From NCBI GenBank assembly GCA_963804165.1, contig CAWDPO010000041.1:1-64000 (forward strand): DNA of 64,000 nucleotides, read 5' to 3'. Positions 10,832 through 60,853 of this stretch are shown here, piece after piece. The stretch comes from an uncultured delta proteobacterium (GTDB lineage Bacteria > Desulfobacterota > Binatia > UBA9968). The translations under genes and the position numbers were made by a program. How positions within the stretch are numbered: the first letter of the stretch is position 1; every line of letters starts with the position of its first letter. A model generated the notes under the pieces. It was given only the letters and a program-made list of their open reading frames with translations, was not told where the DNA came from and did no database searches.

Positions 10832-12112
10832 TCAAGTTTTGAAATATCCTGAATTTGTCTTTACCCCGAACGTCTGGGAATGGCAAAGCGTTTGATTTCC
10901 ACCGGTTTCCAGAACGTTATTATTGACCCTCCGGCTTTTGTAAAACACAGCCATGTAGCCCACGTCGACCTTAATTCGGTTCCAGCTGTAGCCCAGTCCG
11001 GCGGTGAGACTGAGATAATCCGCTCCGGGGATCACCGGGCCAAGAGTGCTGGCGGGAATTGGGGTTTCCTCCAGAGCGAAGCCAGCGCGAGCTTCAAGGT
11101 TTTGAGCAAACTTATAGGAAGTCCCGAATCTCAAAGTGCTTGCATCTTTCCAGTCTTGCGGAAGGAAGAACCCTGTGATGGGAAAGCCTCCGAGAAGTCC
11201 CGGCAATGGAACGGGAAAGTTGGCTTTCAAATGTTCAAACTGGCTCCATCGCACGTAGTCGTATTGAAACTCCAGCCCCCAATCATCGTTCACCTGCCAG
11301 TGGACGCCAAAGTTGATCGTCGGTGGAAGTGGAATGTTGATCCCGTTCGCCTTCGTGCGGGTCACGACACCTCCCGCGCCGCTTGCATCCGCAAACACTA
11401 CGTCGGCGGAATCGAAGTTGAGATTGACCTTGCTCTTGTACGAAAGTCCAAAGCGAAGTTGGTCGTTGGGTTTGACCAATAGTCCAAGATTGTAGGCGTA
11501 TCCGTTCGCAGTATCGGTGATTCGAATCTTCCCGTCGCCAAACGGTCCGAAGAAGAGGGCTCTCGATAGCATCGCCGAAGAATGAACGAAGCTCACTCCG
11601 CCGCCGACGGAGAGATAAGGCAAGGGTTCCCACGATACTGATGGCGTGACAAACATCGTCCGAAGCTCGGACCTGATTGCCGCGTAACGCGTGAAGCTGT
11701 CTGGTTGATAACTCGTTGCTAATCCAAACGGCGCGTAACTGCCGATCCCGAGGGTGATCTTTGTGCCTGGGATGTGATAGTTGCCGAAGAAGTTTGGCAA
11801 AAAATCATCGTCGTGAAGATTTTTTGACGTTGCCCCGGAGTTCCTTACACTGCTAATTGTGTTTACGTACGTTAGCCCGGCCATAACTTGGTTGCCGTCG
11901 ACGAAGCTAAGAGCGGCCGGGTTGATGTAAACCGCAGAAGGATCGTCTACGCCCGCGGTGGCTGCTCCACCCATTGACTCCGCTTTCGCCGTTTGCGGAG
12001 GTATGGCGTAGCCTCCCGCGTGGCCAAGCGTTGTGAAGCTACAGATGAAGCAAAACAGGAATGAGGCAACTAAAATCCTGTTGCGCTGACGAACCATAGG
12101 GCCACCTCTCAT
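10832..12112 (-). CDS. FadL/OmpP1-family outer-membrane hydrophobic-compound channel
   Basis: Signal peptide, MGGAATAGVDDPSAVYINPAAL, APFGLATSY, QDWKD. Confidence 0.9.
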   Translation of the reverse strand: MRGGPMVRQRNRILVASFLFCFICSFTTLGHAGGYAIPPQTAKAESMGGAATAGVDDPSAVYINPAALSFVDGNQVMAGLTYVNTISSVRNSGATSKNLHDDDFLPNFFGNYHIPGTKITLGIGSYAPFGLATSYQPDSFTRYAAIRSELRTMFVTPSVSWEPLPYLSVGGGVSFVHSSAMLSRALFFGPFGDGKIRITDTANGYAYNLGLLVKPNDQLRFGLSYKSKVNLNFDSADVVFADASGAGGVVTRTKANGINIPLPPTINFGVHWQVNDDWGLEFQYDYVRWSQFEHLKANFPVPLPGLLGGFPITGFFLPQDWKDASTLRFGTSYKFAQNLEARAGFALEETPIPASTLGPVIPGADYLSLTAGLGYSWNRIKVDVGYMAVFYKSRRVNNNVLETGGNQTLCHSQTFGVKTNSGYFKT

Positions 12113-45454: not shown

Positions 45455-46945
45455 ATGACCGCACTAGAGGCTAGGAAACTAGCCGAAGACGAAATGAGAG
45501 CCGGGAAAACCCCGAAGTACACCGACCTGCGTGACTGGTTGGAGATTGTCGACAGCGTCGGCGAACTGAAAAAGATCGATGGCGCCGATTGGAACCTCGA
45601 AATGGGTACCCTGGCCGAGCTATTATCCCGCGAGACCAAAAGCGGCTCCGTGCCGGCGGTTCTATTCGACAACGTGCCCGGTTATCCAAAGGGTTTCCGC
45701 ACTCTGTTCGCCCAGAACGCTTCGTTCAAACGCATGGCTTTAAATTTGGGCCTGGACATGAACCTTTCCAGTCTCGATCTGGTTCGTGCCTTCCGCCAGA
45801 AGCTCGTCACGCACGAGCCGATTAAGCATAAGGTCGTCACCAAAGGCCCGATTCTTGAGAACGTCGATTCCGGCGACAAGGTCGACCTGCTTAAGTTCCC
45901 AGTTCCTTTCATGCATGAATTGGACGGCGGGCGTTTCATCGGCACGGCTTGCTTGGTGACCACTCGCGACCCGGATGAAGGCTGGGTAAATTTCGGTGCT
46001 TACCGCGGCATGGTCCATGACAAAAATAGCATGGGTCTTTACATCTCGCCCGGAAAGCACGGCAGCATTCAGCGCAACAAATACTTTGAACGCGGGAAGC
46101 CGTGCCCGGTCGTCGTTTCAGTCGGCCAAGACCCGGTGCTGTTCATGGTCTCCGGTAACGAGATCGACTACGGCGTGTCCGAGTTCGATTATGCCGGCGG
46201 TCTCAAGGGCGCGCCCATCGAAGTCATTGAAGGCAAATCCACGGGCCTACCGTTCGCGGCCCAGGCGGAAATCGTTATCGAAGGTTGGATGGACCCGACC
46301 GACAGGAAGACCGAAGGCCCATTCGGCGAGTGGACCGGCTACTATGCCAGCTCCAGCCGCCCGGAACCCGTGATCCGCGTCGAAAACGTTTACTACAGAA
46401 ACGATCCAATTCTTTGCTGCGCTCGTCCGGGCCGTCCGCCGTCGGATTATTCCATCGCCAAATGTATGGTGAAGGCGGCGTTGATTTGGGAGCAGGTTGA
46501 AAAAGCCGGTGTTCCCGATGTGAGAGGTGTGTGGTGTCACGAGGCCGGCGGCGGCCGCCTTTTCAATATTATCTCAATCAAACAGCGCTATCCGGGTCAT
46601 GCACGCCAAGCCATGTTGGTTGCTTCCCAAGTCCATGCTGGCGCGTACCTCGGGCGCTACGTGATCGTCGTCGACGAGGACATCGATCCGACCAACACTT
46701 TCGACGTGATCTGGGCTTTGGCCAGCCGTTCCGATCCGGTCGAGTCCATCGAAATTCTCCGCCGCTGCTGGAGCGGCCCCCTCGATCCGCGCATCCAACC
46801 GGGCAAGAAGGGCTTCAACTCCCGCGCGGTGATCGACGCCTGCCGTCCGTTCGAGTGGATGAAAGACTTCCCGCCCGTGGCCGAGTCTTCGCCTGAGCTG
46901 AAGGAGAAGATTTACAACAAGTGGAAGAAGGTTATCGAAGGATAA
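45455..46945 (+). CDS. UbiD-family prFMN-dependent decarboxylase
   Basis: DLRDWL, DGGRFI, AEIVIEG, EGPFGEWTGYY, IVVDEDID. Confidence 0.93.
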   Translation: MTALEARKLAEDEMRAGKTPKYTDLRDWLEIVDSVGELKKIDGADWNLEMGTLAELLSRETKSGSVPAVLFDNVPGYPKGFRTLFAQNASFKRMALNLGLDMNLSSLDLVRAFRQKLVTHEPIKHKVVTKGPILENVDSGDKVDLLKFPVPFMHELDGGRFIGTACLVTTRDPDEGWVNFGAYRGMVHDKNSMGLYISPGKHGSIQRNKYFERGKPCPVVVSVGQDPVLFMVSGNEIDYGVSEFDYAGGLKGAPIEVIEGKSTGLPFAAQAEIVIEGWMDPTDRKTEGPFGEWTGYYASSSRPEPVIRVENVYYRNDPILCCARPGRPPSDYSIAKCMVKAALIWEQVEKAGVPDVRGVWCHEAGGGRLFNIISIKQRYPGHARQAMLVASQVHAGAYLGRYVIVVDEDIDPTNTFDVIWALASRSDPVESIEILRRCWSGPLDPRIQPGKKGFNSRAVIDACRPFEWMKDFPPVAESSPELKEKIYNKWKKVIEG

Positions 46946-46971
46946 TCAACACTTCGACTGGGATTTTCAAT

Positions 46972-47003
46972 GGGGCGATCGTGATAAACGGTCGCCCCTT
47001 TTT
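46972..47003 (+). terminator. Rho-independent terminator
   Basis: GGGGCGATCG-tgataaa-CGGTCGCCCC-TTTTT after the UbiD-family stop. Confidence 0.8.
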
Positions 47004-47089
47004 CGTGACCCCGATTACTTCGAACCCAATTCATTGACAGCCCTCTCAGCGCGGGACTATAACAAGTTAAGATCCGCGGAGGTGAAGCC

Positions 47090-47856
47090 ATGGGAAAATT
47101 AAGACATATCGCGTTTATTTCGCAGGAGCCAAAAAAGCTCAGCGATTTTTACCAGAAATATTTCGGCTTCGAAGAATGCAAAATTTTTCCCAGCGGCTCA
47201 CGTATGGTGATCGATCCGCTGTTCAATTTGGCTTTCCTGCAACGGGCAGCGGTCGAAGTGGCGACGGCGGGAACGCACCGAGCGGATGGCAGTGAAAATG
47301 AATTGACGATCGGCATCCATCACTATGGTTTTATGGTGGATGATCTCGACCAAGCGGTAGCAAAACTGCCGGCGAATTTAACCCGTGGGACGACACCGCA
47401 GGTTTCCGCCGGTGTCGGCGGTCCCGAAGGTGCACGGCCTGCCGAAGTCCGATTCCTCGATCCTTGGGGAAACAACGTCGATCTTTCGTCTCGCGGATTT
47501 CTCGGCAGAGAAGAAAAGAAACTTCCCGGCGTGCGGATGCTCGCCGTGCAAGTACCCGACTTGGCCGCGGCCTGTGAGTTTTACCAACAGCAGTTCGATT
47601 TACAGATCGTCGGTTGGAGTGATGATGGGACGATTCGTCTTAGCGATGGAACAGTGACACTACTGCTGACCAAGTCACAAGTGCGGCCGAAAGGCGGCGT
47701 CCAGTATTTTGGCATTCAAGTGAGCGATCTACCGGCGTTAAAAGACGCCTGCAGGAAGACGGGGTGGCGGTTTCGGAAGGGCCGAGCGATCAAATTCAAC
47801 TTATTGACCCGGAAGGAAATCGAGTAGTGATTTCCCAGTCCGGCTGGACCAACTAA
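47090..47856 (+). CDS. Two-domain VOC/glyoxalase-family protein, 3' frameshift
   Basis: KLRHIAF, GIHHYGFMVDD, DPWGNNVD, DPEGNRV. Confidence 0.8.
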
Positions 47857-47922
47857 AGTGTTAATGCCGTGAGAACGTCCCGCTTCTCACGCTTGATTCC
47901 TTAAGCGATTATCCGTCGCGAA

Positions 47923-48888
47923 CTAGGGCAGTCGTAGTTCCTTCTGAACTTCCCGGAGAATACTGAAATCGGCGATCTCGCTTAGTGGAATCTCTCGGGT
48001 AATCTTCACATCTTTTTTCGCCTGGTCGATTAGCAAATTCAGGCCGTCGGCGGGAATTCCGCCGTCGTGGCTGATCACTTTCACGGTCGCGTCGTAAGAT
48101 GCGTAAGCGTGTTCCGGTTTGGCTTTTGCCCATGCCATCAAGATTTTCACCGATTCTTCTCTATTTTCACGGATGAAACGGCTCGCCTTGATAAGGGCTC
48201 TGATCATTCTTTTTACTTGATCGCGGTTTTGTTCGATGGACTTGATATTCACACCGACACCCGATAGCGGGTAGTTCACATACTCGTAGGCGCGGGCGAG
48301 GATGTTGTACCCTAATTTTTTACCCTCAAAGTCCAACGGCGGAGAGGTTACTACTGCGTCGGCGAGTTTTTGTTGAAGGGCAGCGAAGCGGGCCGAGTCG
48401 GTTCCCAAAGGTACGAATTGGATTTCCTTTTCTGGATCGATGCCGTTGCGCGCAAGAATTAATCTCGCCAGCACATGGGTCGCATCGCCGAAGCCGGCGA
48501 GACCGACTTTTTTTCCGCTTAGATCCTTGATTGTTTTGATTTCGGGTCGGGCCAGCAACACGTGAGGCGAGCTCGTCATCAGGCCGGCAACCAGCCGTAC
48601 CGGCAGGCCGCGGATGGCGGCTCTAATGACCGTGCCTGTGAGCAGGGTGCCGTCGATATCACCGTTCGACAAGGCGGCGATCGAAGGGGCCGCGCCCATG
48701 ACGACAATTTCCGCGTCGAGTCCTTCGTCTCTAAAAAAGCCTTTGTGCAGCGCGACTCCTGAGGAAAGAAAGATCATGTTGTAGCCGCCGGACACCGAGA
48801 TGCGGATTTTTTCCGCCGCGTGACCAGCGGATGGGATTGCCAGAAAACATATCAGAAGGGCCGTGAGGTACGTCGAATAATTCAGCAT
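47923..48888 (-). CDS. ABC substrate-binding protein (NMT1/THI5 type)
   Basis: Signal peptide, KGFFRDEGLDAEIV, DLSGKKVG. Confidence 0.85.
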   Translation of the reverse strand: MLNYSTYLTALLICFLAIPSAGHAAEKIRISVSGGYNMIFLSSGVALHKGFFRDEGLDAEIVVMGAAPSIAALSNGDIDGTLLTGTVIRAAIRGLPVRLVAGLMTSSPHVLLARPEIKTIKDLSGKKVGLAGFGDATHVLARLILARNGIDPEKEIQFVPLGTDSARFAALQQKLADAVVTSPPLDFEGKKLGYNILARAYEYVNYPLSGVGVNIKSIEQNRDQVKRMIRALIKASRFIRENREESVKILMAWAKAKPEHAYASYDATVKVISHDGGIPADGLNLLIDQAKKDVKITREIPLSEIADFSILREVQKELRLP

Positions 48889-49114
48889 CGGGAATTTCCT
48901 ATTAGCCGTCTCGATGTCCAAGTGTCAATAGCCGCGAGCGAGTCTCTAACGATCACGTACACGAAACACGATCAGGTTTATCGGACTTGACCCATTCCGT
49001 GCGACCGGTGTAGTTGTGGCGAAACAAAGACGGGCGTACGTGATACGCCCCTACGGAAATCCGTGTTTGCCGAATTGTTGGCTGGTAACATTTTGTTTTT
49101 TGAAGGAGGAATGT

Positions 49115-49489
49115 ATGCGCGTGCTCAAAATTAACGAATTAGCGGAAAAGCCGATGGACACCGCCACGCCGATCGCGGGATGGACCGGCGGAGAGGTGAG
49201 CCGGACCCGGCAAGCGATTATCGGCGACGGGCAGTCGGAAAATTTTCGCTGCAACGTGGTGAATTTTCGCGTTGGCGCGACGACGGGCTGGCATGTGCAC
49301 GACTGCGATCAGATTCTCGTCGTTACGGCGGGCAAAGGTTTTGCCGCAACGGAATCCGAGCAGCGGGAGATTACGGTCGGAGATGTCGTGCATATCAAAG
49401 CTGGTGAGCGCCACTGGCATGGCGCATCGGCAGAATCGCCATTGTCACATATCACGGTGACGACGGTCGGAAGCACTTCGAAGCATTAG
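49115..49489 (+). CDS. Cupin-domain protein
   Basis: GWHVHDCDQIL, GDVVHIKAGERHWHG; GGAGG RBS. Confidence 0.88.
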   Translation: MRVLKINELAEKPMDTATPIAGWTGGEVSRTRQAIIGDGQSENFRCNVVNFRVGATTGWHVHDCDQILVVTAGKGFAATESEQREITVGDVVHIKAGERHWHGASAESPLSHITVTTVGSTSKH

Positions 49490-49602
49490 CGCTTGTGTTG
49501 CGATAATCCCCCGGATGGGCTTAGTGTCAGGCCGGTGAAAACCGCCATCCAGAAAAGGCGCATACCATGCGCCCCTACGAAAATGCCCGGACTTTGGGAT
49601 CT

Positions 49603-50346
49603 TTAACGGCCCCCACGTTTCGTCTTGATCTCGTAACCGAACAGATCGCTGCGATAGAAACCGGCCGTGCGCAGAACAAGTTTCTTCTTGTGTAAATAAT
49701 TTCGCTCGACGAACAACACAGGGGAGCCGGTGGGGATTTCCAAGTGGGCCGAAACCTGGTGGTCCGCGAGCTTGGCGCTGACAACCAGCTTGAGGCCAGC
49801 AATCTTGATCCCCAGCCGGTCTTCAATGATGTTCGTGAGCGGCTGTTTCAGCAGCCGGTCTCGCGGGACCTTATCAAGCATGCGGGCGGGGACGTAGGAA
49901 TTCACGAACGCGAGGGGGCGACCGTATGCCATCCTCACCCGCGTGATCTTCGTGATTTTTTCATCCGCATCCAAGTTAAAATCTCGGCGCAGCTCTGGCG
50001 CGGCCGTTTTTGTGTCGATCCGCAGCACTTTGAAGCTCGTACCTTCCGGATTGATGCTCACAAGATTTGCCGCATCGATTTCGAGATTAATCGGCTGCTT
50101 GACCGGTCCGCTCCAGGTGACGAAAGTTCCCTTGGCGCGCTCGCGGCGCACCAAGCCTTCGCGGGTCAAGTCTGCGAGGGCTTGGCGAACCGTGATGACG
50201 CTAACGTCGAGGCGTCGCGCCAGATCCAATTCGCCGGGGAGCTGGAATCCCGTGCGCCATTCGCCCGATAAAATATTGTCGCGGAAAGCGGTCATGACTT
50301 TAAAGTAGAGCGGCACTGGAGAGGGAGAACTGCTAGCGAGGCGCAT
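49603..50346 (-). CDS. GntR/HutC (UTRA) transcriptional regulator
   Basis: PLYFKV, LPGELDLARRLDVSVITVRQAL, KGTFV, UTRA-like C-terminus. Confidence 0.9.
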   Translation of the reverse strand: MRLASSSPSPVPLYFKVMTAFRDNILSGEWRTGFQLPGELDLARRLDVSVITVRQALADLTREGLVRRERAKGTFVTWSGPVKQPINLEIDAANLVSINPEGTSFKVLRIDTKTAAPELRRDFNLDADEKITKITRVRMAYGRPLAFVNSYVPARMLDKVPRDRLLKQPLTNIIEDRLGIKIAGLKLVVSAKLADHQVSAHLEIPTGSPVLFVERNYLHKKKLVLRTAGFYRSDLFGYEIKTKRGGR

Positions 50347-50391
50347 GTCGATTACCTATATGTTTGCAACAGGAGGTCAATTTGCCGGATA

Positions 50392-51069
50392 TTATGGCGA
50401 GTTTTCCTTGGATCGTGCCGCGGCAGGAATTGTTCGTAGCGCTTCCAAGATCTGCTCGTTGGTGGGTCTCTTCTTATAGTCTGTTTCAATAAAGCGCCAA
50501 CGCACGACACCCTGTTTGTCGATGACATAAGTCGCCGGGTGCGGCCAGCCCTTGTTGTTCGGATTTAAGATTCCATACCGGTTGATGACCTTGTGATCTT
50601 TGTCTTCGAGTAGCGGAAAATCGAGATCGCCGGTAAATCTCTCTTTGAGTTTTTGCACGAATTTTTTCGAATCATCGTGACTGTCGACGCTGACCGCGAG
50701 GATTTGAACCTGATTTTTTTCCTCTTTGGTTAGGAGGCCTTTCAGCTCACCGAGCTGTTGTGTGCAGTAGGGTCACCATTGGCCACGATAAAACACCAAT
50801 ACAACATTCATTTTGCGATAGACTTCTGAAAGAGTAATTCTCCGTCCATCCAAGTTTTCAAGCGTAAAGTCCGGCGCGGTATCCCCGACTTTGACTCTCT
50901 CCAGGTCGGTCGGCGGCAGATCCGCGACGTCTTTAGGGCCTAATTGTGCATTAGCCACGGCAACGGCTAGGTAAAGGAAACTGAATGCAATCGTTATTGC
51001 TAAGCGGTTTCGGAAAGTAGAGCTTTCTCTTGGACGCTCGATACGCCAAATGTGTTTTCCCCACGTCAT
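50392..51069 (-). CDS. Predicted selenoprotein: exported peroxiredoxin-like (AhpC/TSA) protein, UxxC, Sec at TGA 50773-50775
   Basis: Two in-frame ORFs join as FYRGQW-U-PYCTQQL; hairpin CAGCUC-GGU-GAGCUG with loop at +22. Confidence 0.88.
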
Positions 51070-51214
51070 GGCAATTGTCTCCTTTCGTCACAAAGTAAAT
51101 CCAGATCATTTACACCGCTCGTTATCCAGCGTTACGTCACGGTCTATGAACGATATTCCGCGACAATAGGTTTCCGGATCGAGCAAATCGTCAAATGAGC
51201 ATCACAGCGCCCGC

Positions 51215-51706
51215 CTATTGTTGTTGCGCCTTTCTCTTTTTGAAGAACTGGATATGACTCAACGCGTCGGCGGCAACGATACGTCCGATGGGGCCGATAC
51301 TGTACGAGGCATCACACACCTTTTTGTCCGAATCCAGGATGAAATTCGTGGCGTGGATGATCTTTCTACGCTCTTCCCAGAAAGCGCCGACCTTGTCGGC
51401 GTCTCTCGGCACTTCAAGTCCATAGGCCACGGGAAAGGTGAGTTGCAACTTGTCGACGGTCTCTTTCGCTTTGTCCAAGGGGTCGACCGAGAGAGCCACC
51501 ACGTCGACATTTTCCTTTTTGAATTCTTCGATGTGGGATTGGTAGTCGGCCAACTGCCGCATGCAGTACGGTCACCAACTGCCGCGATAGAAAATCAGCG
51601 CGGCGTACTCGCCCGTGAGGTCCTGGGGCAGACGAAGTGTTTGACCGGCGGTCGTTTGCACCTGGTACTCCGGGAACGAATAGCCAAAGTTGAGCTGTCG
51701 TGCCAT
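51215..51706 (-). CDS. Predicted selenoprotein: peroxiredoxin-like (AhpC/TSA) protein, UxxC, Sec45 at TGA 51572-51574
   Basis: GGGGAG RBS, ATG at 51706, MARQLNFG..IFYRGSW-U-PYCMRQL in frame; weaker hairpin GG(C)AGUU-GGCC-GACU(A)CC. Confidence 0.85.
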
Positions 51707-51929
51707 ATATTCTCCCCTCAGAATTTAATCATCGAACTTCGAACCCCTGCGCAGTTGCGACGCTACCCACCGAACTTCGCGTTGCTCCAGGCGGTCATCG
51801 ACTTGGGATTTCGCGACGCGCATGTTGACTGCTTATATGATTAATAGTAGGAGGTCAATTGATTTGTGTCGCTGGCGTGCTGTGTAAATTCGCCGCGGCG
51901 CGACAATTTTTATGGGGGAGGTTCTCATT

Positions 51930-52439
51930 ATGGCGGAGCATTCAGCAGGGAAGAGCGGCCAGCCGGGAGGAATGCCCGGCCGTCCGATCGGCACGGTGCG
52001 CGTCGATATCGCGCGCCAGGAGCACAAAACGTTCGAGGCGGTTTTCAAGACCGAGGACAAGTCATTTCAGCTCATGATCGACGAGCCGGAAATTCGCGGC
52101 GGCAAAGGCACGGGCCCGACGCCGCTGGGTTACTTCGTCACCGGCGCGGCTTCCTGCTTGATGATGCAGTACGCCAACGTTTTGAAGGAGAAGCCGATGC
52201 CGGTGGAAAGCATCAAGATGCTGGCGCGGGCGCACAACGACCGCGACGCGCGGGTCTTCACCGATATGATTTACCAGGTCGATCTCACCGGGTCGATCTC
52301 CGAGGCCGATGCGGAAACGCTGGCAAAGGCGGCCAGTGCGCGCTGCTTCGTAGAGAACACTATCGCCAAGGCGCTGCCGATCACGACAGAAGTAAGCGTC
52401 AATGGAAAAAAGGTCGTGTCGTTCACACGAAATAGTTAA
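51930..52439 (+). CDS. OsmC-like protein (Cys form)
   Basis: DEPEIRGGKGTGPTPLGYFVTGAASCL and ARCFVENT; GGAGG RBS. Confidence 0.88.
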   Translation: MAEHSAGKSGQPGGMPGRPIGTVRVDIARQEHKTFEAVFKTEDKSFQLMIDEPEIRGGKGTGPTPLGYFVTGAASCLMMQYANVLKEKPMPVESIKMLARAHNDRDARVFTDMIYQVDLTGSISEADAETLAKAASARCFVENTIAKALPITTEVSVNGKKVVSFTRNS

Positions 52440-52475
52440 ATCGCCCATCCACCGCGGGAAGATTAGGAAATCACG

Positions 52476-52637
52476 ATGATCCACCTTTACTACTGGACTA
52501 CGCCGAACGGACACAAGATCACGATCTTCCTAGAGGAAGCTGGGCTGCCGTATTCGATCAAACCGGTCAATATTTCCGTGGTCGGCATGATACCGCGGTC
52601 GGGTGGGAAACGGTTAATCGACGCCTGCAACCGGTAA
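52476..52637 (+). pseudogene. Truncated YfcG-like glutathione S-transferase N-terminus
   Basis: MIHLYYWTTPNGHKITIFLEEAGLPYSIKPVNI followed by an unrelated tail and a stop after 53 aa. Confidence 0.75.
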
Positions 52638-52651
52638 GAGGAGAGCGGGTT

Positions 52652-53323
52652 ATGCCCTGGATTAAAATAATTGCCGAGCATGAAGCCGAGGGCGAGCTTA
52701 AAGAGGTCTATAGGAAGATCCGCGAGCAGCGTCAGGGTGAGAAGATCAACCAGGATCGCGATGCGTCCGCCGGCGGGCCGCCGGTGAGCCCGCCGATGCT
52801 GCACAGTCTGAATCCCAAAGCGATGTGGCACACCGCCGAGCTGATGTGGGAGATCATGCGCGGGGAGTCGCGGCTGACCACGGCGCAGCGCGAGATGATC
52901 GCCACCGTGACATCGGCGACGCTGCACTGCCGCTTCTGAACCGTCGCCCACGCAGAGTTTCTGCGTCAGGAAGGCGGCGACGATTTATCGGTAGAGCAAG
53001 TCAAAGACGATTGGCGGCAGATGGAGCTGACCGAAGCCGAGTACACAATGTTGGAATTTGCGGAGAAACTAACGCTCACGCCGAGCAACATGCGCGAAGC
53101 GGACGTGCAGAAATTGCGCGACGTCGGCTGGACCGATCGCGACATCCTCGATATCGTCCACGTGTGCGCCTATTTTAACTTTCGTGTGCGAGTCGTCGAC
53201 GGGCTCGGACTGGAAGTTGCCGATTGGCAGATCCAGCGCGCGAGAGCCGGCGCGCAGCGCGCCGCCAAGTTGGCTGAAGAGCGCGGTGTGGCCATGCCAT
53301 CTGATCCTTGGAAGACACGTTGA
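52652..53323 (+). CDS. Predicted selenoprotein: AhpD/CMD-like peroxidase-related protein, CxxU, Sec96 at TGA 52937-52939
   Basis: REMIATVTSATLHCRF-U-TVAHAEFL continues in frame to AEKLTLTP..AYFNFRVR; hairpin ACGCAGA-GUU-UCUGCGU with lower stem CGUCGCC/GGCGACG. Confidence 0.9.
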
Positions 53324-53332
53324 GGAAAAGTA

Positions 53333-53980
53333 ATGAGCTTCATCAAAGTTATTTACGAGTCCGAAGCGACGGGCGAGCTAAAAGAAGTTTACGAGAGAAC
53401 GCTTAGTCGCTTAAGTCCATCCGTGCGCCAGCGACGCGGCGACAAGCTGCCACCGATCGTGAGAATTTTTAGCCTTTGTCCGGCGCTGCTCGAAGCGCGG
53501 GTGGGCTTCGACAAGGGCATTTACCGGCCCGGCCATTCCGGCTTGGGCCGGCGCAAGGAAGAGCTGATCGCGACTCAGGTGGCGGCGCTGAGTGGCTGCC
53601 GGTTTTGAGGCATCGGCCACGGAGAGTTTCTCCGTGTCGACGGCAAGATGGCGGTGGAGGAAGTCGCCAAGGTGATCTCCAACTGGCGTGAGGCCGATCT
53701 GGACGAGCAGGAAAAAGCCATGCTCGCGTTCACCGAAAAGTTTACACTCACGCCGAGTCAAATGACCGACGCCGATCTCGAGAAGCTGCGCCAGGCGGGC
53801 TTCAGCGACGAACAGATTCTTTCCATCGCTTTGGGCGCCGGCTATCGAAACTGGGTGGATCGCATCGCTGATCTGCTCGGCGTCGAGGAAGAAAAGTTCG
53901 ACTTCCCGGAGGAAATTTTGAAAGCCTTCGGCGTCACCCGCGAGCAGCTTGAGACCTCGCTCTACGAGGATAACCGATGA
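53333..53980 (+). CDS. Predicted selenoprotein: AhpD/CMD-like protein, CxxU, Sec92 at TGA 53606-53608
   Basis: ELIATQVAALSGCRF-U-GIGHGEFL in frame; hairpin CACGGAGA-GUU-UCUCCGUG. Confidence 0.9.
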
Positions 53981-54420
53981 GCCGCTTGCAGACCGTCATG
54001 GGAACGAGAATCGCGGATCTGCTTGGCGCGGCGCCGGGCGCGCTCGAAGCGGACAGCGCCATGCGCACTCTGCTCATCGAACATTTGACGCCGCGGCTCT
54101 TCAGTTTGATCGGTATCGTGGTAGCCGGTTGCCTCCGCTGCGAGCGTTTCGCCGACGCGCTGCGCGCCCCACTGGATCAGCCATCGGCCCAACAGGCTGC
54201 CCGTGATTGGCGGGCGCTTGAACTTTCGGCGGCGGAAAAGGCGATACTTGCCTACGCGGAAAAGGGGACTCTCGACGAGGCCTCGGTGCGCTGGCGGGAC
54301 GTAGATCAGCTACGCGCGGCGGGTCTCGACGACAGGGATATTCTCCTGATCGCAACGGCTATCGCTTATCATAATTACTCGATTCGCATGGCAGCGGCTT
54401 TTGACGTCGCGCCGTGCTGA
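53977..54420 (+). CDS. AhpD/CMD-like protein, CxxC form
   Basis: GCLRCER, LSAAEKAILAYAEK, LRAAGLDDRDIL; ATGA overlap with the previous gene. Confidence 0.8.
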   Translation: MSRLQTVMGTRIADLLGAAPGALEADSAMRTLLIEHLTPRLFSLIGIVVAGCLRCERFADALRAPLDQPSAQQAARDWRALELSAAEKAILAYAEKGTLDEASVRWRDVDQLRAAGLDDRDILLIATAIAYHNYSIRMAAAFDVAPC

Positions 54421-54456
54421 GGGTGTCGGCGTACAAAAAACCAGCGCGCGAAAAGA

Positions 54457-55395
54457 ATGTACGTTCTTGAAGTTTGGAAGGATTATGGCATGCGCGGAAT
54501 AACTCCTAGACGAGAGCAAGGGATGGCAGATCCGGTGTTGGCCGAGATGGTTCATGCAACGGGCGCTACGGAGTCCCGCCACTACGCGGCGGTGAAACCG
54601 ACCATTCAGGCCTATCGCGCCAGTTGGGTGAAATTGGCGCCCTATCGAGATGGTCCCGTGAATTCGCAGCGGGTCCAGGTCGACGACCCCGCGGGGATAA
54701 CTGCACAGGTCAAAGCGAAAGCGATGGAGTTGGGCGCGAACCTGATCGGGGTCTGCCGCTTGCAGCCGCATATGATCGATCTCGGCTCGGAGGTATCACA
54801 GGAGTTCGTGATCGCGTGCTGCGTCGCGGAGGATTACGATAAGGTCTTGCGGGGCGCAGATGCGGTGGAAGAAGAGGCGATGCGAACCTATGCGAAGTGC
54901 ACCGAGATCGCCACGGCGCTGGCCGCTTACGTGCGCGAGATGGGCTACCCGGCGATCGCCCACCACAACGGCGCCAGCGAGGTGCAAGCGATACCGATTT
55001 TCTATCAAGTCGGGTTCGGCGAGCTGGGCCGCCACGGCAGTTTGATCAACGAAAAATACGGCGCGAGTTTTCGTCCGGGTTTCGTGACGACGGACCTGCC
55101 GCTGGTGGAAGATCAGCCGCGGGAATTCGGCGTGCAGGACTTCTGCATGAACTGCAACGTCTGCCAGCGCAACTGTCCGGGCGATGCGATACCGCAGGAT
55201 CATGTGGTCACCCACGGCATCAAACGTTGGCTGATCGATCTAGAGAAATGTTATCCCTACTCGCGACTGCGCGAAGAGTACTGTCATCTCTGCGTCGACG
55301 CGTGTCCGTATATCGTGAAGTCTTATCCCGAAACCTATAGAGCGTTCATGAAGGAGCGCAAACAAGTGGGCTACAAGACGCCGAAAACATATTGA
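54457..55395 (+). CDS. Reductive dehalogenase / QueG-like double [4Fe-4S] protein (start may be downstream)
   Basis: GFGELGRHGSLINEKYG..VTTDLPL, FCMNCNVCQRNCP, C-x10-CHLCVDACP; no Tat signal. Confidence 0.8.
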   Translation: MYVLEVWKDYGMRGITPRREQGMADPVLAEMVHATGATESRHYAAVKPTIQAYRASWVKLAPYRDGPVNSQRVQVDDPAGITAQVKAKAMELGANLIGVCRLQPHMIDLGSEVSQEFVIACCVAEDYDKVLRGADAVEEEAMRTYAKCTEIATALAAYVREMGYPAIAHHNGASEVQAIPIFYQVGFGELGRHGSLINEKYGASFRPGFVTTDLPLVEDQPREFGVQDFCMNCNVCQRNCPGDAIPQDHVVTHGIKRWLIDLEKCYPYSRLREEYCHLCVDACPYIVKSYPETYRAFMKERKQVGYKTPKTY

Positions 55396-55673
55396 TGGAA
55401 ACCGACGATCAGGGAGGATTCTCCCGCCAAGGCGCAAAGGCGCCAAGTTCGGAAAGTTTCACAATGGAAAAACTCTACGTTAACGAAATCGGTCCCGATG
55501 GCGCCGTCAGCACCGTAGGCTTGTTTTACTCGCAGGCCGAGGCCGAAAAGATTGTCGGCATGCTGCGCGCCAATCCAGACCGAGCAAGCTATAGGTATGA
55601 AATCGTCGAAGCAGTCAGACATATCTTGTCTGAGAAGCAAGCGCGTCGGGCCGTGGCCGGTCAGAAGGAGTAG
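55392..55673 (+). CDS. Small hypothetical protein (start possibly at the MEKLYV ATG)
   Basis: Fills the gap in the operon and abuts the RBS of the next gene. Confidence 0.5.
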   Translation: MMETDDQGGFSRQGAKAPSSESFTMEKLYVNEIGPDGAVSTVGLFYSQAEAEKIVGMLRANPDRASYRYEIVEAVRHILSEKQARRAVAGQKE

Positions 55674-55675
55674 CC

Positions 55676-56227
55676 ATGCCCTATATTAAAACGGTGCCGC
55701 CGGCCGAGGCTACCGGCAAACTCAAAGAAGTCTATGAGTCGGGCTCCGGCCCATCGGCGGCGCGCGGCAAGGTCTCTATGATCCGCCAGGTGCAAAGCCT
55801 CAATCCCGACAACCTCGCCGCCTGGCGCGCGCTCGACGTATCGATCATGCGCGGCGAATCGCGCATCACGCGCCGCCAACGCGAGATGATCGCGACGGTG
55901 GTGTCGGCGACCAATCACTGCAGCTATTGAATGACCGCGCACGGAGAGGCTCTCCGTACCGAATCGAACGACGATCCTCTGGTCGAAGGGATTAAACAAG
56001 ATTACACACAGTTGAATTTATCCCCGGCAGAGCGGGCCATGTTGGATTACGCGGTCAAATTGACGGTCGCACCGTCGACGGCGAGTGAAACGGATATCCA
56101 TACTCTACGCACCCACGGCTTCGACGACCGCGACATTTTGGATATCGTCTACGTGATCTGCCTTTACAATTTCAACGACCGGATGGCCGATGCCGCCGGC
56201 ATTACCGGGCATGATTTTTTTAGATGA
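55676..56227 (+). CDS. Predicted selenoprotein: AhpD/CMD-like protein, CxxU, Sec85 at TGA 55928-55930
   Basis: REMIATVVSATNHCSY-U-MTAHGEAL; hairpin ACGGAGA-GGC-UCUCCGU. Confidence 0.9.
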
Positions 56228-56274
56228 GATCATTCAATCGTTCGAGTGTAACGCCCAGTTAGATAGGAGGAAGC

Positions 56275-56820
56275 ATGAGCAAACCCTTAGGCAGGATCGA
56301 TCGAGAAGCGTTTCGGCAAGTGCACAAGGAGCAACAAGAACGGGCGAAACAGGGGCCGGAAGGCTATACGACAACGACGCGGGCGGTGATCAGGCTCATA
56401 GAAAACCAATTGAAAGAGGCGCGCATCGGCGAATACACCATTCAATGCGATGAGGCGAAGTCGCGCAAGGGCGGCGGCAAGGCGCCGTCACCGCTGCAAT
56501 ACTTCGTCGCGGCGACCGGCTTTTGAATGTTCAGCCAACTGGCGCGGTACGCGTCACAACTGGACATCGAAATCGAGGACGCCGAGATGGATATCCGAAT
56601 GACCTATGACACGCGAGGGAAATTGCTGCTGGAAGACGTGTCGCCGGGGTGCAATGATCTGACCTACGTTTTCAAGATTAAGAGCCCGGCGCCGTCCGAC
56701 AAGGTGCAAGAGATGCTGCGGCTGATCGAGAAGGGCTGCCACACGATCAATTCATTGAAAAATCCCGTGCCGGTCGCCGGAAAGCTGATTCATAACGGTC
56801 AGGAGATCGCCGCGCTGTGA
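56275..56820 (+). CDS. Predicted selenoprotein: OsmC-like protein, Sec84 at TGA 56524-56526
   Basis: PSPLQYFVAATGF-U-MFSQL aligns with PTPLGYFVTGAAS-C-LMMQ of the Cys paralogue; second Cys in KGCHT; hairpin AUGUUCAG..UGGCGCG-GUA-CGCGUCA..CUGGACAU. Confidence 0.9.
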
Positions 56821-56868
56821 TTCCTACATGTTCAACTTAGCGAAGTCGACGTCAGGAGGCAGAATTTC

Positions 56869-57657
56869 ATGATCGAGCTTTATCACAACGATATGTCGGT
56901 TTGCGCGCAGAAGGTGCGATTCGCCTTGGCGGAAAAGAAGCTTTCCTGGGAGGGGCACCATCTAAATCTTCGCGCCGGCGATCAGCAGAAGCCGGAATAT
57001 TTAAAACTTAATCCCAACGCGGTGGTGCCGACTTTGGTGGACGATGGGAACGTTATTATCGAGTCTACGGTGATCTGCGAATATCTCGACGATACCTATC
57101 CTGAGCCAAAGCTTAAACCCGCCGATGCGCTGGGGCGGGCGCGCATGCGCTTATGGACCAAGCAGCTCGACGAAGGCGTGCACGCGGCAACCAGCGTCGT
57201 CAGCTCGGCCATCGCGTTTCGCTATCAGAAGCTCGCTATCGGCATGGAAGCGCTCGAAGAGTTTCACGAGAAGATGCCCGACCCGGTGAAGCGGGAAAAA
57301 AGCTGGGAGAATGTCACCAAGGGCGTCGAATCGCGTTTCTTTCCCGAGGCGATCAAGCGCTTCGACAGGCTGCTCGCGGACATGGAAGTGTCGTTGACAG
57401 ACTCGCCGTGGCTTGCCGGCCGGGAATTTTCCCTCGCGGATATTGGCTACGCTCCGTACATCACTCGGCTCGATCATCTGCAGTTGCAGTTTCTCTGGGA
57501 CAAGCGGCCCCATATCCCCGATTGGTACGACCGCTTGCGTGAACGCCGTGCTTACAACGAGGCGCTGGAAAAATGGTTCAACGCGAATTACCTGCCGCTA
57601 ATGAAAGAAAAGGGTCTCGAAGTTCGCGACAAAATCAAAGCGATTGTGGCGGGATAA
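56869..57657 (+). CDS. Glutathione S-transferase family protein
   Basis: SVCAQKVR, LNPNAVVPTL, IESTVICEYLD, FSLADI. Confidence 0.92.
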   Translation: MIELYHNDMSVCAQKVRFALAEKKLSWEGHHLNLRAGDQQKPEYLKLNPNAVVPTLVDDGNVIIESTVICEYLDDTYPEPKLKPADALGRARMRLWTKQLDEGVHAATSVVSSAIAFRYQKLAIGMEALEEFHEKMPDPVKREKSWENVTKGVESRFFPEAIKRFDRLLADMEVSLTDSPWLAGREFSLADIGYAPYITRLDHLQLQFLWDKRPHIPDWYDRLRERRAYNEALEKWFNANYLPLMKEKGLEVRDKIKAIVAG

Positions 57658-57914
57658 CTCTGTCTGATTCCCGAGAGGTGAAATACGGAAAGCGCCAATT
57701 TGGACGCTTTGGGCAGAGTTCGTGCGATGGCGCGAGCGCAGTGGATGCTCTAACTCTGTCCTCAACAAACCGCAATACTCTCCATTGCCCACCCTCAGCG
57801 TCCGTTTTGCCAGCGTCATCAACTGCAACACTCGCCACGCCGGTCAGAATCAAATATTTGCGCGGCCTGGTCAAATACGGCGGTTGGTTTCCTGGTGCGG
57901 AAAAGCGAAGCGGC

Positions 57915-57977
57915 GGCTAACGTTTCGTTAACGCGCGCGCCGTTCGCGGCGCGTCGGTGTTGAACGCTGGGTTGGGC
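57915..57977 (-). other. Integron attC site (63 bp)
   Basis: GCCCAAC ccagc GTT[C]AAC..cgcgccg cgaa cggcgcg..GTTAAC gaaac GTTAGCC; canonical box spacing and extrahelical base. Confidence 0.88.
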
Positions 57978-57986
57978 GTCATTGTG

Positions 57987-58439
57987 TCAGCGGGCTACGG
58001 CCGCCTCAGCAATACCTGCCAGCGCCTTGCGTAAGTTCCCGATGACGGCGCACTGCGTAACCCCATGGCGTTGCCCCAGGAATTCGGGATCGTTGTAGCC
58101 GAGCCAAACTTGGGACGATGCGTCCTCCCACACCAGGGCCTTGAGCGGAAGATCGATTCCCACAGTCTGCGCGCACTCCATGAAGGGCGTGCCGCCTTGC
58201 GGGTTGCCAAAGATGATGACCTCGGTTGGCCGCAGAGTCATGCCGACTTTTGCTGCACCCGCCGCGTGATCGATCCGCGCAAACACGTTCAGCCCACGTT
58301 GTTTGACCAGATCCTCGAGCCGGTTCATCGTGTCCTTAGCACTGTGGGGGCTCTTCACGACGAGCAAGCCATCTGCGGCGCTAGCAAGCGAACTGGCGGC
58401 CAAGCAGGCAACGATTGCAAGGGAGCGAAGCGCATTCAC
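57987..58439 (-). CDS. DUF302-family exported protein (cassette gene)
   Basis: AAAGGAG RBS + GTG; VFARIDHAAGA, IFGNPQGGTP, GIDLPLKALVWED. Confidence 0.88.
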   Translation of the reverse strand: MNALRSLAIVACLAASSLASAADGLLVVKSPHSAKDTMNRLEDLVKQRGLNVFARIDHAAGAAKVGMTLRPTEVIIFGNPQGGTPFMECAQTVGIDLPLKALVWEDASSQVWLGYNDPEFLGQRHGVTQCAVIGNLRKALAGIAEAAVAR

Positions 58440-58478
58440 GGGTAAACTCCTTTCGCGTGAGAAGAAGGAGATGAAGAC

Positions 58479-58572
58479 GCCCAACGTATAGCGTTTTATC
58501 CCCTAAAGGTTGGCGGCAATCAAGTTGCTTGATGGCGCTGGAGTATCGCTAAGGGGAAAAAACGTGTTGGAC
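58479..58572 (-). other. attC-like terminal site of element copy 2
   Basis: GTCCAAC-a-CGTTTTTTCCCCT...AGGGGATAAAACG-ctatac-GTTGGGC. Confidence 0.65.
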
Positions 58573-58816
58573 TAAACCGCGGAGCCGCTGAGCAGCTGCG
58601 GCTATGGGGATTGTAACCTGACGCAGTGCGGCTGAGCAGGGCACCGCGTTAGCGATAGTACGGCCAGTGGATGATGGTTGAGATCAGCGCCGGTGGTTTT
58701 TCGCCGATTGCGACACTGCCATGCAACTTCAGAGGCGGTTTTGGGCAGAGCCAAACGCACCCGCGCTAAGTCGGCAGATTGAGAGTCACACCAGCTGAGA
58801 GGCGATGGAGCCTTGC

Positions 58817-59992
58817 TCATGAAGAATCCACACGAGGCGAGATCGAGAACGCCGGTAGGTCGCCGACGACAATCATCCTTCCCTCACCGCAGCACGGGCA
58901 GCGAGAAAGATCGACGCCTGTGATTTTAAGCAGCAGGTCTTTGGCTGAGAGCAAGGGAGGTTGCGGCAAAGCGGGATCGAGATCGAGGAGTTTGCGGCAC
59001 TGAGCGAGCGCTAGTTTTTTGGCGCGGTTAGCCAACAAGCCGAAGTGACGGATGCGCATGAAGCCTTGCGGCAAGACGTGAAGCAAAAAGCGGCGGATAA
59101 ATTCCTGGGCCTCCAGCGTCATGGTCTTTTTGCGATCCCCGTCTCTTCGATCTCGATAACTCAAGGTGACTTCTCCGTCTTGGATCTGGAGAATACGATT
59201 GTTGGACAGCGCCACGCGGTGGGTGTAGCGGCCGAGGTAGTCAAGCACCGTGTGGGGCGAGCCGAAAGGCTTTTTGGTATAGACCCCCCAGTTCTTTTGG
59301 CGTAACTCGTTGATGGCTTCGCTTGGGAAATCGATTTTTCCTCGCACGATGTTGTGTTGTAACAGATCGAGAAACTTTGCTCGGAAAACCAAGCTTAAAG
59401 CTTTAACCGGAAACAGAAAGTTTTTGCGCGCCGAGATCCAGCGATTTTGATCGAAAGACAGAGCACCGGCGGGGACAAGACAGTGCAGATGAAAATGATC
59501 CTTGAGGGTTTGGTCCCAGGTGTGCAGCACGGCAATGATACCGATGGTTCCCTTAAGACGTGTCTGGCCAAACTCCAACAAGGTTTTACTGACAGCTTTA
59601 AACAGAAGACCCAGTACGATCTTCTTGTTGGCAAGGATCAGCCGGTTCAGTTCATGGGGTAAGGTAAAGACCAAATGAAAATATCCCACCGGCAAAAGCT
59701 CAGAGGTTTGCTTCTCCAACCACCGAGCCTTAGCCAAGGCTTGGCACTTGGGACAGTGGCGGTTACGGCAGGAGTTATAAGCCGGACGCTCAAAGCCGCA
59801 AGACTCGCATCGATCCAGATGCCCGCCCAACTCTTGGGTGCGGCAGGCCGAAACGGCCCGCACCACCTTTTGCTCGCAGGCCAATAAACGATGCGTTCGT
59901 TGGTAGCTCTCCCCGTACTGACGAAAAACATCGGCCAGCTCGGGACGCGCCCTTTTTTCTCCTGCCGCCAGCCCAGGGCTGGCCGGCAGCAT
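58817..59992 (-). CDS. IS91-family (Y2/HUH) transposase
   Basis: NSCRNRHCPKCQ, DHFHLHC, YLGRY, RIRHFGLL. Confidence 0.93.
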   Translation of the reverse strand: MLPASPGLAAGEKRARPELADVFRQYGESYQRTHRLLACEQKVVRAVSACRTQELGGHLDRCESCGFERPAYNSCRNRHCPKCQALAKARWLEKQTSELLPVGYFHLVFTLPHELNRLILANKKIVLGLLFKAVSKTLLEFGQTRLKGTIGIIAVLHTWDQTLKDHFHLHCLVPAGALSFDQNRWISARKNFLFPVKALSLVFRAKFLDLLQHNIVRGKIDFPSEAINELRQKNWGVYTKKPFGSPHTVLDYLGRYTHRVALSNNRILQIQDGEVTLSYRDRRDGDRKKTMTLEAQEFIRRFLLHVLPQGFMRIRHFGLLANRAKKLALAQCRKLLDLDPALPQPPLLSAKDLLLKITGVDLSRCPCCGEGRMIVVGDLPAFSISPRVDSS

Positions 59993-60004: not shown

Positions 60005-60853
60005 CTACAGCGAGTCGTTGCGCGGATCGAGCAAGTCCAACGGACTCGTGGTCGAGCCCAGCTTGGGCTGGCGGATTTGCAGATAGCGCTGGGTACTCTG
60101 AAGCGAGTTATGACCCAACAGCGTCTTAATAGTCACCAGATCCACTCCCGCTTCTAACAGGTGGGTGGCGAAACAGTGACGCAGCGTGTGAATCCCTTTG
60201 CCTTTTTCAATGCCGCTTTTGTGCTTGGCGAGATTGTAGACTTTCTGCGCGGCGGTGATGTGCAGGGGATCATTTCTGGTTTTACCAAAGAAGACCCACA
60301 GCACGGGTTGATAGGCCTGCTTATATTTTCTCAGCTCGCCAAGCAGCCGTTGGGAGAGAATCGTGTAGCGGTCTTTTTTCCCTTTGCCCTGTTCCACTCG
60401 GATCATCATACGCTCGGGATGAATGTCGCTGAGTTTGAGGTGGATTAGCTCAGTGACCCGAAGTCCCGCCGCATAAGCGGTCATCAGTAAACAGCGGTCT
60501 CTGAGCTTGACCGCGGCGCAAAGCAATCGCTCGACTTCCCTGGGGCTCAACACCTCGGGCAACCGCCACGTCCGTTTTCTCGGCGGCAAGAACAGCTGCT
60601 CTTCGTTCCAGCCCAAAACTTGCTGATAGAAAAACCGTAGCCCCGAGATCGCCACGTTCTGGGAATTGGCGGATAAGCCTCGTTTCTGGAGATGCAACAG
60701 ATAGGCGCGGATCTCGTCTTGCGTCAGTTGATCCGGGAATCGATGATAGTACCTGGCCAGCCCCACCATCGCCGCAACGTAGGACTTCTGCGTCCTCGAT
60801 GCGAAATTTCTCAGCTTCATCTCCTCGATCATCTTGTCGCGTAATACTCCCAT
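60005..60853 (-). CDS. Tyrosine recombinase
   Basis: [41 protein letters not shown]. Confidence 0.95.
   Translation of the reverse strand: MGVLRDKMIEEMKLRNFASRTQKSYVAAMVGLARYYHRFPDQLTQDEIRAYLLHLQKRGLSANSQNVAISGLRFFYQQVLGWNEEQLFLPPRKRTWRLPEVLSPREVERLLCAAVKLRDRCLLMTAYAAGLRVTELIHLKLSDIHPERMMIRVEQGKGKKDRYTILSQRLLGELRKYKQAYQPVLWVFFGKTRNDPLHITAAQKVYNLAKHKSGIEKGKGIHTLRHCFATHLLEAGVDLVTIKTLLGHNSLQSTQRYLQIRQPKLGSTTSPLDLLDPRNDSL

Follow-up and report, generated by a model that had tools for sequence, protein, structure and literature searches.

A predicted cytoplasmic RdhA-superfamily protein and its conserved 69-residue neighbour among selenoprotein genes of a soil Binatia bacterium

The eight-gene run and its selenocysteine codons

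We analysed 64,000 nt of DNA from a soil bacterium of the Binatia group (contig CAWDPO010000041.1, positions 1 to 64,000; hereafter the window), in which positions 52652-57657 of the plus strand carry eight genes in the order AhpD1(U), AhpD2(U), AhpD3 (CxxC), an iron-sulfur (Fe-S) protein, an open reading frame (ORF) for 69 amino acids (aa), AhpD4(U), OsmC(U) and a glutathione S-transferase (GST), where (U) marks a gene whose in-frame TGA is read as selenocysteine (Sec). Judged by its sequence and predicted structure, the Fe-S protein is a member of the reductive dehalogenase (RdhA) superfamily of the 'simplified cytosolic' kind, and not of the respiratory, NpRdhA or QueG type. We observed that the 69-aa ORF is a real, conserved gene and, unlike the selenoprotein genes, the most constant neighbour of the Fe-S gene, and that the linkage to AhpD genes is real but confined to one lineage, so that it is not a property of the Fe-S family.

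The run is closely spaced and co-oriented, as a first-pass annotation made from the sequence alone had described it, with all eight genes on the plus strand and intergenic gaps, from AhpD1 to GST, of 9, -4, 69, 68, 2, 47 and 48 nt. The start of AhpD3 overlaps the stop of AhpD2 (ATGA), a purine-rich stretch precedes most start codons of the run, and a scan of the plus strand within it, which is weak evidence, found no terminator-like or promoter-like sites. For the Fe-S gene an alternative ATG lies upstream at 54457, and GGAAGGA precedes the ATG at 54490; homologues are 290 or 301 aa long, and we therefore place the start at the Met at 54490. Coordinates and family matches are collected in Table 1, for which Pfam was scanned together with NCBIfam models, the cut-offs being 81.8 bits for TIGR01926 ('peroxidase-related') and 95 bits for NF041052. 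The run was compared with 62 loci from public genomes whose Fe-S protein is at least 50% identical, here called close (at least 76% identical) or distant (less than 76%); only loci with sufficient flanking sequence enter each count.

Table 1. Features of the gene run, followed by its spacer and the genes on either side
Feature	Coordinates	Strand	Remarks
AhpD1(U), CRFU	52652-53323	+	UGA at 52937; TIGR01926 131.5 bits
AhpD2(U), CRFU	53333-53980	+	UGA at 53606; TIGR01926 99.0 bits
AhpD3, 147 aa, CLRC	53977-54420	+	TIGR01926 54.1 bits and Pfam CMD 18.4 bits, both below cut-off
Fe-S protein, 301 aa	54490-55395	+	cytoplasmic, single-lobe RdhA-superfamily member; predicted corrinoid site and two [4Fe-4S] clusters
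69-aa protein gene	55464-55673	+	no known family
AhpD4(U), CSYU	55676-56227	+	UGA at 55928; TIGR01926 141.1 bits
OsmC(U), GFUMFS	56275-56820	+	UGA at 56524; NF041052 OsmC_like_Se 151 bits
GST, 262 aa	56869-57657	+	Pfam GST_N_3 E 3.3e-19, GST_C_2 E 5.6e-10
Spacer	55396-55463		holds a dispersed repeat, some 30 nt long, that includes a short GC hairpin; most relatives lack the spacer
Peroxiredoxin (AhpC/TSA) selenoprotein, WUPYC	50392-50970	-	AhpC-TSA E 1.1e-37 (TGA read as U); 5' end not fixed
Second peroxiredoxin selenoprotein, WUPYC	51215-51706	-	AhpC-TSA E 2.9e-22
OsmC-like protein, Cys form	51912-52439	+	Pfam OsmC E 1.5e-16; NF041052 90.8 bits, just below the cut-off
Probable YfcG-type GST N-terminal remnant, 53-aa ORF	52476-52637	+	NF010579, residues 1-36 only, E 1.4e-8
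DUF302 protein	57995-58484	-	match limited to the C-terminal stretch, positions 136-247 of 270, in an NCBIfam model whose name refers to a CrcB fluoride-channel fusion
IS91-family (Y2) transposase	58820-59992	-	3' of the cluster
Integrase (tyrosine recombinase)	60005-60853	-	3' of the cluster

The Sec decoding of the four in-frame UGA codons, in AhpD1, AhpD2, AhpD4 and OsmC, is sound, because the UGA is conserved, a hairpin lies downstream of it, and selA (610 bits), selB (357 bits) and tRNA-SeC are all present in the genome. Specifically, among orthologues at least 60% identical a stop codon occupies the CxxU position in 11/11 sequences of AhpD1, 7/7 of AhpD2 and 20/20 of AhpD4, and the Sec position of OsmC(U) in 10/10. 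In the three AhpD(U) genes, nt 14-30 counted from the UGA form a hairpin of 7 bp in every orthologue, and OsmC(U) has a comparable 7-bp hairpin at nt 17-33. The pairs of these hairpins vary only between A-U and G-U among orthologues, with the exception of one A-C mispair in one AhpD4, and no double compensatory changes were seen among them. AhpD3, with its CxxC motif, stays below the threshold for an AhpD-like selenoprotein (54.1 against 81.8 bits) and is kept in 11 loci at 69-79% identity.

The Fe-S protein and its relation to RdhA and QueG

The solved structure closest to the Fe-S protein by sequence is NpRdhA (E 1.9e-51, over NpRdhA residues 345-571). An AlphaFold2 (AF2) model built from a 67-sequence alignment, with a pLDDT of 86.6, superposes on NpRdhA in VIA-align with Z 27.3 and an rmsd of 2.8 Å over 276 residues (chain 285-637), followed by PceA at Z 24-25, QueG at Z 16.8, and nitroreductases and MMACHC at Z 6-8 (MMACHC itself at Z 8). 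Foldseek gives the same ranking, with TMq 0.73-0.75 for NpRdhA vs 0.44-0.48 for QueG. The model thus has the predicted nitroreductase-like fold of a corrinoid-binding lobe, which suggests that the protein would bind a corrinoid.

The residues that would carry the chemistry are conserved to match. The segment typical of RdhA and QueG enzymes and the two ferredoxin-type Cys motifs that the first-pass annotation had pointed out are both present in the translation; Pfam Fer4_7 matches with E 1.5e-8, and C219, C222, C225, C229, C254, C265, C268 and C272 are invariant in 67/67 aligned sequences. Tyr134, equally invariant (67/67), aligns with Y426 of NpRdhA, and Arg195, kept in at least 90% of the sequences, aligns with K488 of NpRdhA and with an Arg of PceA (8q4h). 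Y426/K488 and Tyr246-Arg305 are the proposed proton-donor dyads of the respective RdhAs in PMC7565698 and PMC4646009, as far as those texts were at hand. Neither the Fe-S protein nor the 69-aa protein contains the twin-arginine motif [ST]RRxF[LIV]K or a 19-residue window whose hydropathy reaches 1.6 (the maxima are 1.19 and 0.63, respectively); a Tat signal and an RdhB-like anchor are therefore both lacking, as the first-pass annotation had noted. The match to NpRdhA, the dyad and the eight Cys likewise bear out, at the level of sequence and model, the earlier placement of the protein among cytoplasmic members of the cobalamin-dependent RdhA/QueG class.

A phylogenetic tree of 133 rows, rooted on the QueG of this genome, places the Fe-S family in a 21-row clade of its own (SH-aLRT 100, stem 0.73). 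This clade is distinct from the NpRdhA/BhbA-like forms of 569-1087 aa, from those of respiratory size (about 450-490 aa), from several other short clades, and from the two further RDH-like paralogues that the same genome holds at 33-38% identity to the Fe-S protein; as the tree was searched quickly and has one long branch for its outgroup, its deep order is unsure.

One alternative would make the protein a divergent epoxyqueuosine reductase, or a different class III cobalamin enzyme that modifies tRNA or a cofactor. Several source annotations do label homologues 'epoxyqueuosine reductase', and at one distant locus (L049, the single locus scanned with Pfam) the pair of Fe-S and 69-aa genes sits between tmk, holB, metG and tatD and pilin genes, although all of these are on the opposite strand. 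The QueG model TIGR00276, however, gives the Fe-S protein 41.1 bits against a cut-off of 200, and a genuine QueG with 397 bits lies on contig C46 of the same genome, and one with 486-496 bits is present in 5/5 complete genomes of the distant clade; the check proposed earlier, whether the protein is a bona fide QueG and the sole copy, thus came out negative. The context of the conserved Tyr is R-T-Y-A-K, so that the DYH motif is missing, as the first-pass annotation had remarked, and the Arg of the RdhA dyad is present; QueG has its Tyr in a DYH motif and lacks an RdhA-type Arg, according to the portions of PMC4646009 at hand. The poorer structural match of QueG and the patchy distribution of the family, which we found in 13 of 201 sampled genomes of the class and only in two families of one order, point the same way, and we consider this alternative close to refuted. 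What the Fe-S protein shares with QueG is the predicted class III architecture of cobalamin and two [4Fe-4S] clusters and the conserved Tyr; it lacks the DUF1730 and HEAT parts.

Among characterized enzymes the Fe-S protein comes closest to the catalytic half of NpRdhA. Like NpRdhA and BhbA it would be cytoplasmic, with no Tat signal and no RdhB, and has the two-[4Fe-4S] pattern and a catalytic Tyr with a basic partner. In contrast to NpRdhA it is only 301 aa long, lacks the N-terminal vestigial cobalamin-like lobe, has Arg in place of Lys488, belongs to a separate clade and has the 69-aa neighbour gene; in contrast to BhbA, it has no C-terminal reductase. PceA shares the superfamily, the Tyr-Arg dyad and an AhpD-family gene beside the enzyme gene, but is Tat-exported, RdhB-anchored and respiratory, where the Fe-S protein would be a cytoplasmic mini-enzyme. 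A survey of cold seeps describes 'simplified cytosolic' RdhA-like proteins that are short, lack the vestigial lobe, occur in Desulfobacterota and Chloroflexota and include none studied biochemically (PMC12219181, from the portions at hand), and the Fe-S protein falls into this category. The type described there averages 395 aa and comes from marine sediments, as compared with 301 aa and soil here, and the same portions of the survey mention neither Binatia, nor a small partner gene, nor selenoprotein neighbours.

The 69-residue partner and the neighbourhood across genomes

The 'small ORF' of the first-pass annotation, which passed over its conservation, has 443 homologues and a conserved 48-residue core. 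The 69-aa protein has no Pfam or NCBIfam match, and no Pfam domain was found in any of the 120 matches listed. AF2 predicts the fold strand-strand-helix-strand, at a pLDDT above 90 over residues 1-50, and the protein contains neither Cys nor a membrane helix. The gene lies downstream of the Fe-S gene in 55/59 loci, comprising 34/35 close and 21/24 distant ones; the loci in which it is not within 400 nt are L040, L056 (where it is about 2 kb downstream) and two proteobacterial loci.

A Foldseek search with the model of the 69-aa protein gave no match at E <=0.001. The top match of the fold, though a weak one, is PaaB, a small bridging subunit (Foldseek E 0.42, TMq 0.48; VIA-align Z 5.2 over 54 residues), and matches in the ESM Atlas are Binatota clusters only, without names. 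Within the Fe-S family, proteobacterial members have in addition a conserved domain, about 110 aa long and of no known family, that is fused to the N- or C-terminus in P0122, P0124 and P0126; in L067 it forms a separate ORF just downstream (10986-11330). Homology between the 69-aa protein and this domain was considered and rejected (hhalign probability 0.4%, E 0.15), a short FSRxExE likeness being a lead only.

The gap between the Fe-S and 69-aa genes is usually 7-14 nt. In the window it is 68 nt because a short dispersed repeat has been inserted; we found nine other copies of this repeat in the genome, 28-35 nt long and about 90% identical or more. In contigs of run X20, joints occur that lead from 55395 directly to 55464. 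As a separate observation, many unrelated metagenome contigs match positions 55421-55453 only.

The AhpD genes behave differently from the 69-aa gene. An AhpD gene of any kind flanks the Fe-S pair, on either side, in 19/24 close loci as against 0/22 distant ones, which argues that the AhpD genes are accessory, and AhpD4(U) follows the pair in 20/30 close loci. OsmC(U) is present in 9/25 close loci and GST in 5/22. On a tree of the Fe-S protein (59 rows; five loci with frame breaks or in pieces were left out), AhpD adjacency requires five changes or more and is strongly clustered, to a degree that 500 shuffles never reached. The expectation that linkage to AhpD and OsmC genes would be found in other genomes therefore held for AhpD in the close loci; it did not extend to the distant ones, and OsmC(U) is a minority neighbour even among close relatives. 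Gene orders vary in the close loci, with AhpD1-2-3 upstream, AhpD1 alone upstream, or tandem copies of the Fe-S gene, and genes for cupin, GntR, peroxiredoxin(U) and DUF302 proteins recur there. In nine related loci genes are inserted directly upstream of the Fe-S gene: an IspH/LytB paralogue together with a gene of the ornithine-cyclodeaminase/mu-crystallin family in seven (L016, L020, L026, L027, L029, L033, L035), and the latter gene by itself in two (L034, L071). The IspH/LytB paralogue scores 143 bits on TIGR00216, below the cut-off of 188, and a LytB-like query found nothing at E <=1e-10 in the genome of the window.

These counts bear on the more ambitious proposal of the first-pass annotation, namely a coupled pathway in which the B12/Fe-S reductase, AhpD(U), OsmC(U) and GST act sequentially on one substrate class, for example with a reduction before or after a selenol or glutathione reaction on a compound that is halogenated, epoxidised or carries oxidised sulfur or selenium. 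The tight, operon-like layout would fit such a pathway, as would the recurrence of AhpD linkage despite rearrangement. AhpD4(U) orthologues at least 70% identical occur only beside the Fe-S gene in the class sample (3/3 genomes), and orthologues lie beside it in all 20 of the loci, which were themselves chosen via the Fe-S gene; all four TIGR01926-type genes of this genome lie in this cluster. A GST gene also adjoins two distant proteobacterial loci (L067, L069), on the other strand, and MMACHC, a distant relative by fold, uses glutathione. The distant clade nevertheless speaks against obligate coupling: besides the missing adjacency, 5/5 of its complete genomes keep the Fe-S/69-aa pair and selA and have no strong AhpD4(U) match, the one weak match, obtained with this query only, having E 1.9e-4. 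OsmC(U) and GST are neighbours in a minority of loci, AhpD(U)-like genes occur in 47 of the 201 sampled genomes, far more than the 13 with the Fe-S family, and a thiol/selenol couple would be an unlikely donor for low-potential clusters. Of the proposal, the recurring AhpD linkage stands, within the limits of one clade; as a whole we regard the coupled pathway as unlikely.

The genes that surround the run suggest a different alternative. The transposase and the tyrosine recombinase, 1.2-3.2 kb downstream, are consistent with an accessory island, and the 53-aa ORF at the upstream edge is, from its sequence match, probably a gene remnant, the YfcG type being a glutathione-dependent disulfide oxidoreductase. 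The neighbourhood could then be functionally meaningless, the pair having landed in a mobile stress and selenoprotein island and the linkage persisting by descent in a young lineage. The dispersed repeat in the spacer, the lack of the cluster in two genomes of the same genus and the phylogenetic clustering of the adjacency, as from descent alone, would all agree with this, and the sampled loci are kin rather than independent. Yet AhpD genes stay beside the pair in several gene orders, including those with LytB- or ornithine-cyclodeaminase-like insertions and with tandem Fe-S copies; AhpD4(U) starts only 2 nt past the 69-aa gene; and the unrelated Sulfurospirillum has the same pairing of AhpD and RdhA (PMC4585668, PMC8865925, in the portions at hand). 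Mere co-location accordingly appears to us a rather improbable account.

Two peroxiredoxin(U) genes, the Cys-form OsmC gene and the GST remnant just upstream had gone unremarked in the first-pass annotation. With the former, in which an in-frame UGA falls in the WUPYC motif, six Sec genes lie within about 7 kb (two predicted peroxiredoxin(U), three AhpD(U) and OsmC(U)). Homologues of the peroxiredoxin(U) at 50392-50970 lie near the Fe-S gene in L022, L027, L031, L046 and L047, those of the second one near the cluster in L014, L015, L023, L027, L033 and L046, and the Cys-form OsmC gene is also upstream in L014, L023 and L046. Taken one by one, the flanking genes are ordinary members of known selenoprotein families covered by NCBIfam models, and AhpD-like (CxxU), OsmC-like and peroxiredoxin-like selenoproteins have been listed since 2005-2008 (PMC2398784, in the portions at hand); the unusual part is their clustering, with six Sec genes in 7 kb around an RdhA-like gene.

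Further out, DUF302 genes recur 3' of AhpD4(U) in L014, L023, L026, L029, L032 and L034. Upstream, positions 45455-49489 of the window encode a UbiD-family decarboxylase, a glyoxalase/VOC protein, an NMT1-type binding protein and a cupin, and for three of these (cupin, VOC and UbiD) homologues are also found close to the Fe-S gene at several related loci, among them L015, L016, L018 and L046.

A proposed two-gene module and its possible role

We favour a reading in which the core of the locus would be a two-gene module of the Fe-S protein and the 69-aa protein. The Fe-S protein would be a minimal class III cobalamin enzyme, reduced to a nitroreductase-like corrinoid lobe and a ferredoxin lobe with two [4Fe-4S] clusters. 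Electrons would pass from a low-potential donor through the two clusters to a base-off corrinoid, and the cobalt would reduce a small cytoplasmic substrate with a proton from Tyr134, backed by Arg195, as in the Tyr-Arg/Lys dyad of RdhA enzymes. The substrate would most likely be an organohalide or a similar compound with a leaving group. The 69-aa protein, encoded 7-80 nt downstream, may be a subunit or an assembly partner of the Fe-S protein, and we would expect the two to bind each other. In one soil Binatia lineage this module would have become embedded in a shuffling thiol/selenol redox island of AhpD(U), OsmC(U), peroxiredoxin(U) and GST genes, whose products may protect or service an oxygen-sensitive enzyme, or be co-induced under oxidative or electrophile stress, and would not be obligate steps of one pathway. 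We put the probability that the RdhA-superfamily enzyme assignment and the accessory or protective role of the selenoprotein genes hold together at about 0.6.

The selenoprotein genes are a lineage-specific addition and probably not an accidental one, since the linkage survives rearrangement and an AhpD-family gene precedes pceA in Sulfurospirillum. There the gene (SMUL_1530, with a CxxCxxxH motif) lies directly upstream of pceA, its protein was detected only in PCE-grown cells, and the authors propose that it protects or matures PceA (PMC4585668); the gene is conserved in each of the eight organohalide-respiring Sulfurospirillum genomes compared, where it stands first in the organohalide-respiration region (PMC8865925), both as given in the portions of these papers at hand. 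PceA has one Cys-type AhpD as its neighbour; the locus described here has four AhpD genes, three of them with Sec, together with OsmC(U), peroxiredoxin(U) and GST.

Several points weigh against this reading. The Fe-S protein reaches 115 bits on the RDH model TIGR02486, short of the cut-off of 160.35, and matches profile positions 85-281 of 314 only; scores of 96-123 bits were likewise obtained for seven relatives from the family (43-53% identical) and for three other short representatives. No motif is diagnostic of corrinoid binding in class III enzymes (PMC4646009, in the portions at hand), so that the argument for cofactor binding is drawn from the fold. Of the NpRdhA residues, S422, the ligand of the substrate hydroxyl, is replaced by Ala and R552 falls in an alignment gap, and a halophenol substrate is therefore not implied. 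In the assembly, which is 81% complete and whose gaps are not proof of absence, cobS was not found and cobQ had no match above cut-off; an Rfam scan of positions 49000-59000 returned no cobalamin riboswitch, with no match at E <=1; and within the cluster no ferredoxin, flavodoxin or reductase gene was identified. The Fe-S family is absent from two genomes of the same genus that are 96-98% complete, and the module is therefore dispensable. Finally, the protective role assigned to the selenoproteins is argued from analogy with Sulfurospirillum.

A further possibility keeps the module and changes its chemistry: the Fe-S and 69-aa proteins could form a new class III cobalamin enzyme that does not dehalogenate but reduces an oxidised, epoxidised or sulfur- or selenium-bearing metabolite, with the Sec-containing AhpD proteins as dedicated redox partners or product handlers. 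We hold this to be decidedly doubtful; if true, soil Binatia would have a repair or detoxification system of their own that depends on selenium and B12.

The claim that the system is undescribed needs to be divided. Our literature search found no paper that ties a short RdhA-like protein to AhpD/OsmC selenoproteins or to Binatia, and neither the Fe-S clade, the 69-aa partner nor the embedding among Sec-type AhpD, OsmC and peroxiredoxin genes was found there, although the supplementary tables of PMC12219181, which lay outside the search, might list members of the clade. Short cytosolic RdhA-like proteins as such have already been named, as far as the portions of PMC12219181 at hand go, and an AhpD-family gene beside pceA is documented. 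With that division, and on the reading of a minimal RdhA-type enzyme with accessory selenoproteins, the clade offers a compact candidate, at about 300 aa perhaps simple to express, with a small partner that looks obligatory.

To our knowledge, reductive dehalogenation and epoxyqueuosine reduction are the only established reactions of class III cobalamin enzymes. The authors of the QueG structure expected further class III families (PMC4646009, in the portions at hand), and the host group of the one described here is widespread in soil but uncultured. If the Fe-S protein dehalogenates, it would be the smallest RdhA-type catalyst and of interest for the enzymology of bioremediation; if it does not, it would extend B12 chemistry. 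In either case the pairing of AhpD with RdhA is repeated, with Sec here and Cys in Sulfurospirillum, and by this analogy may point to a general accessory function.

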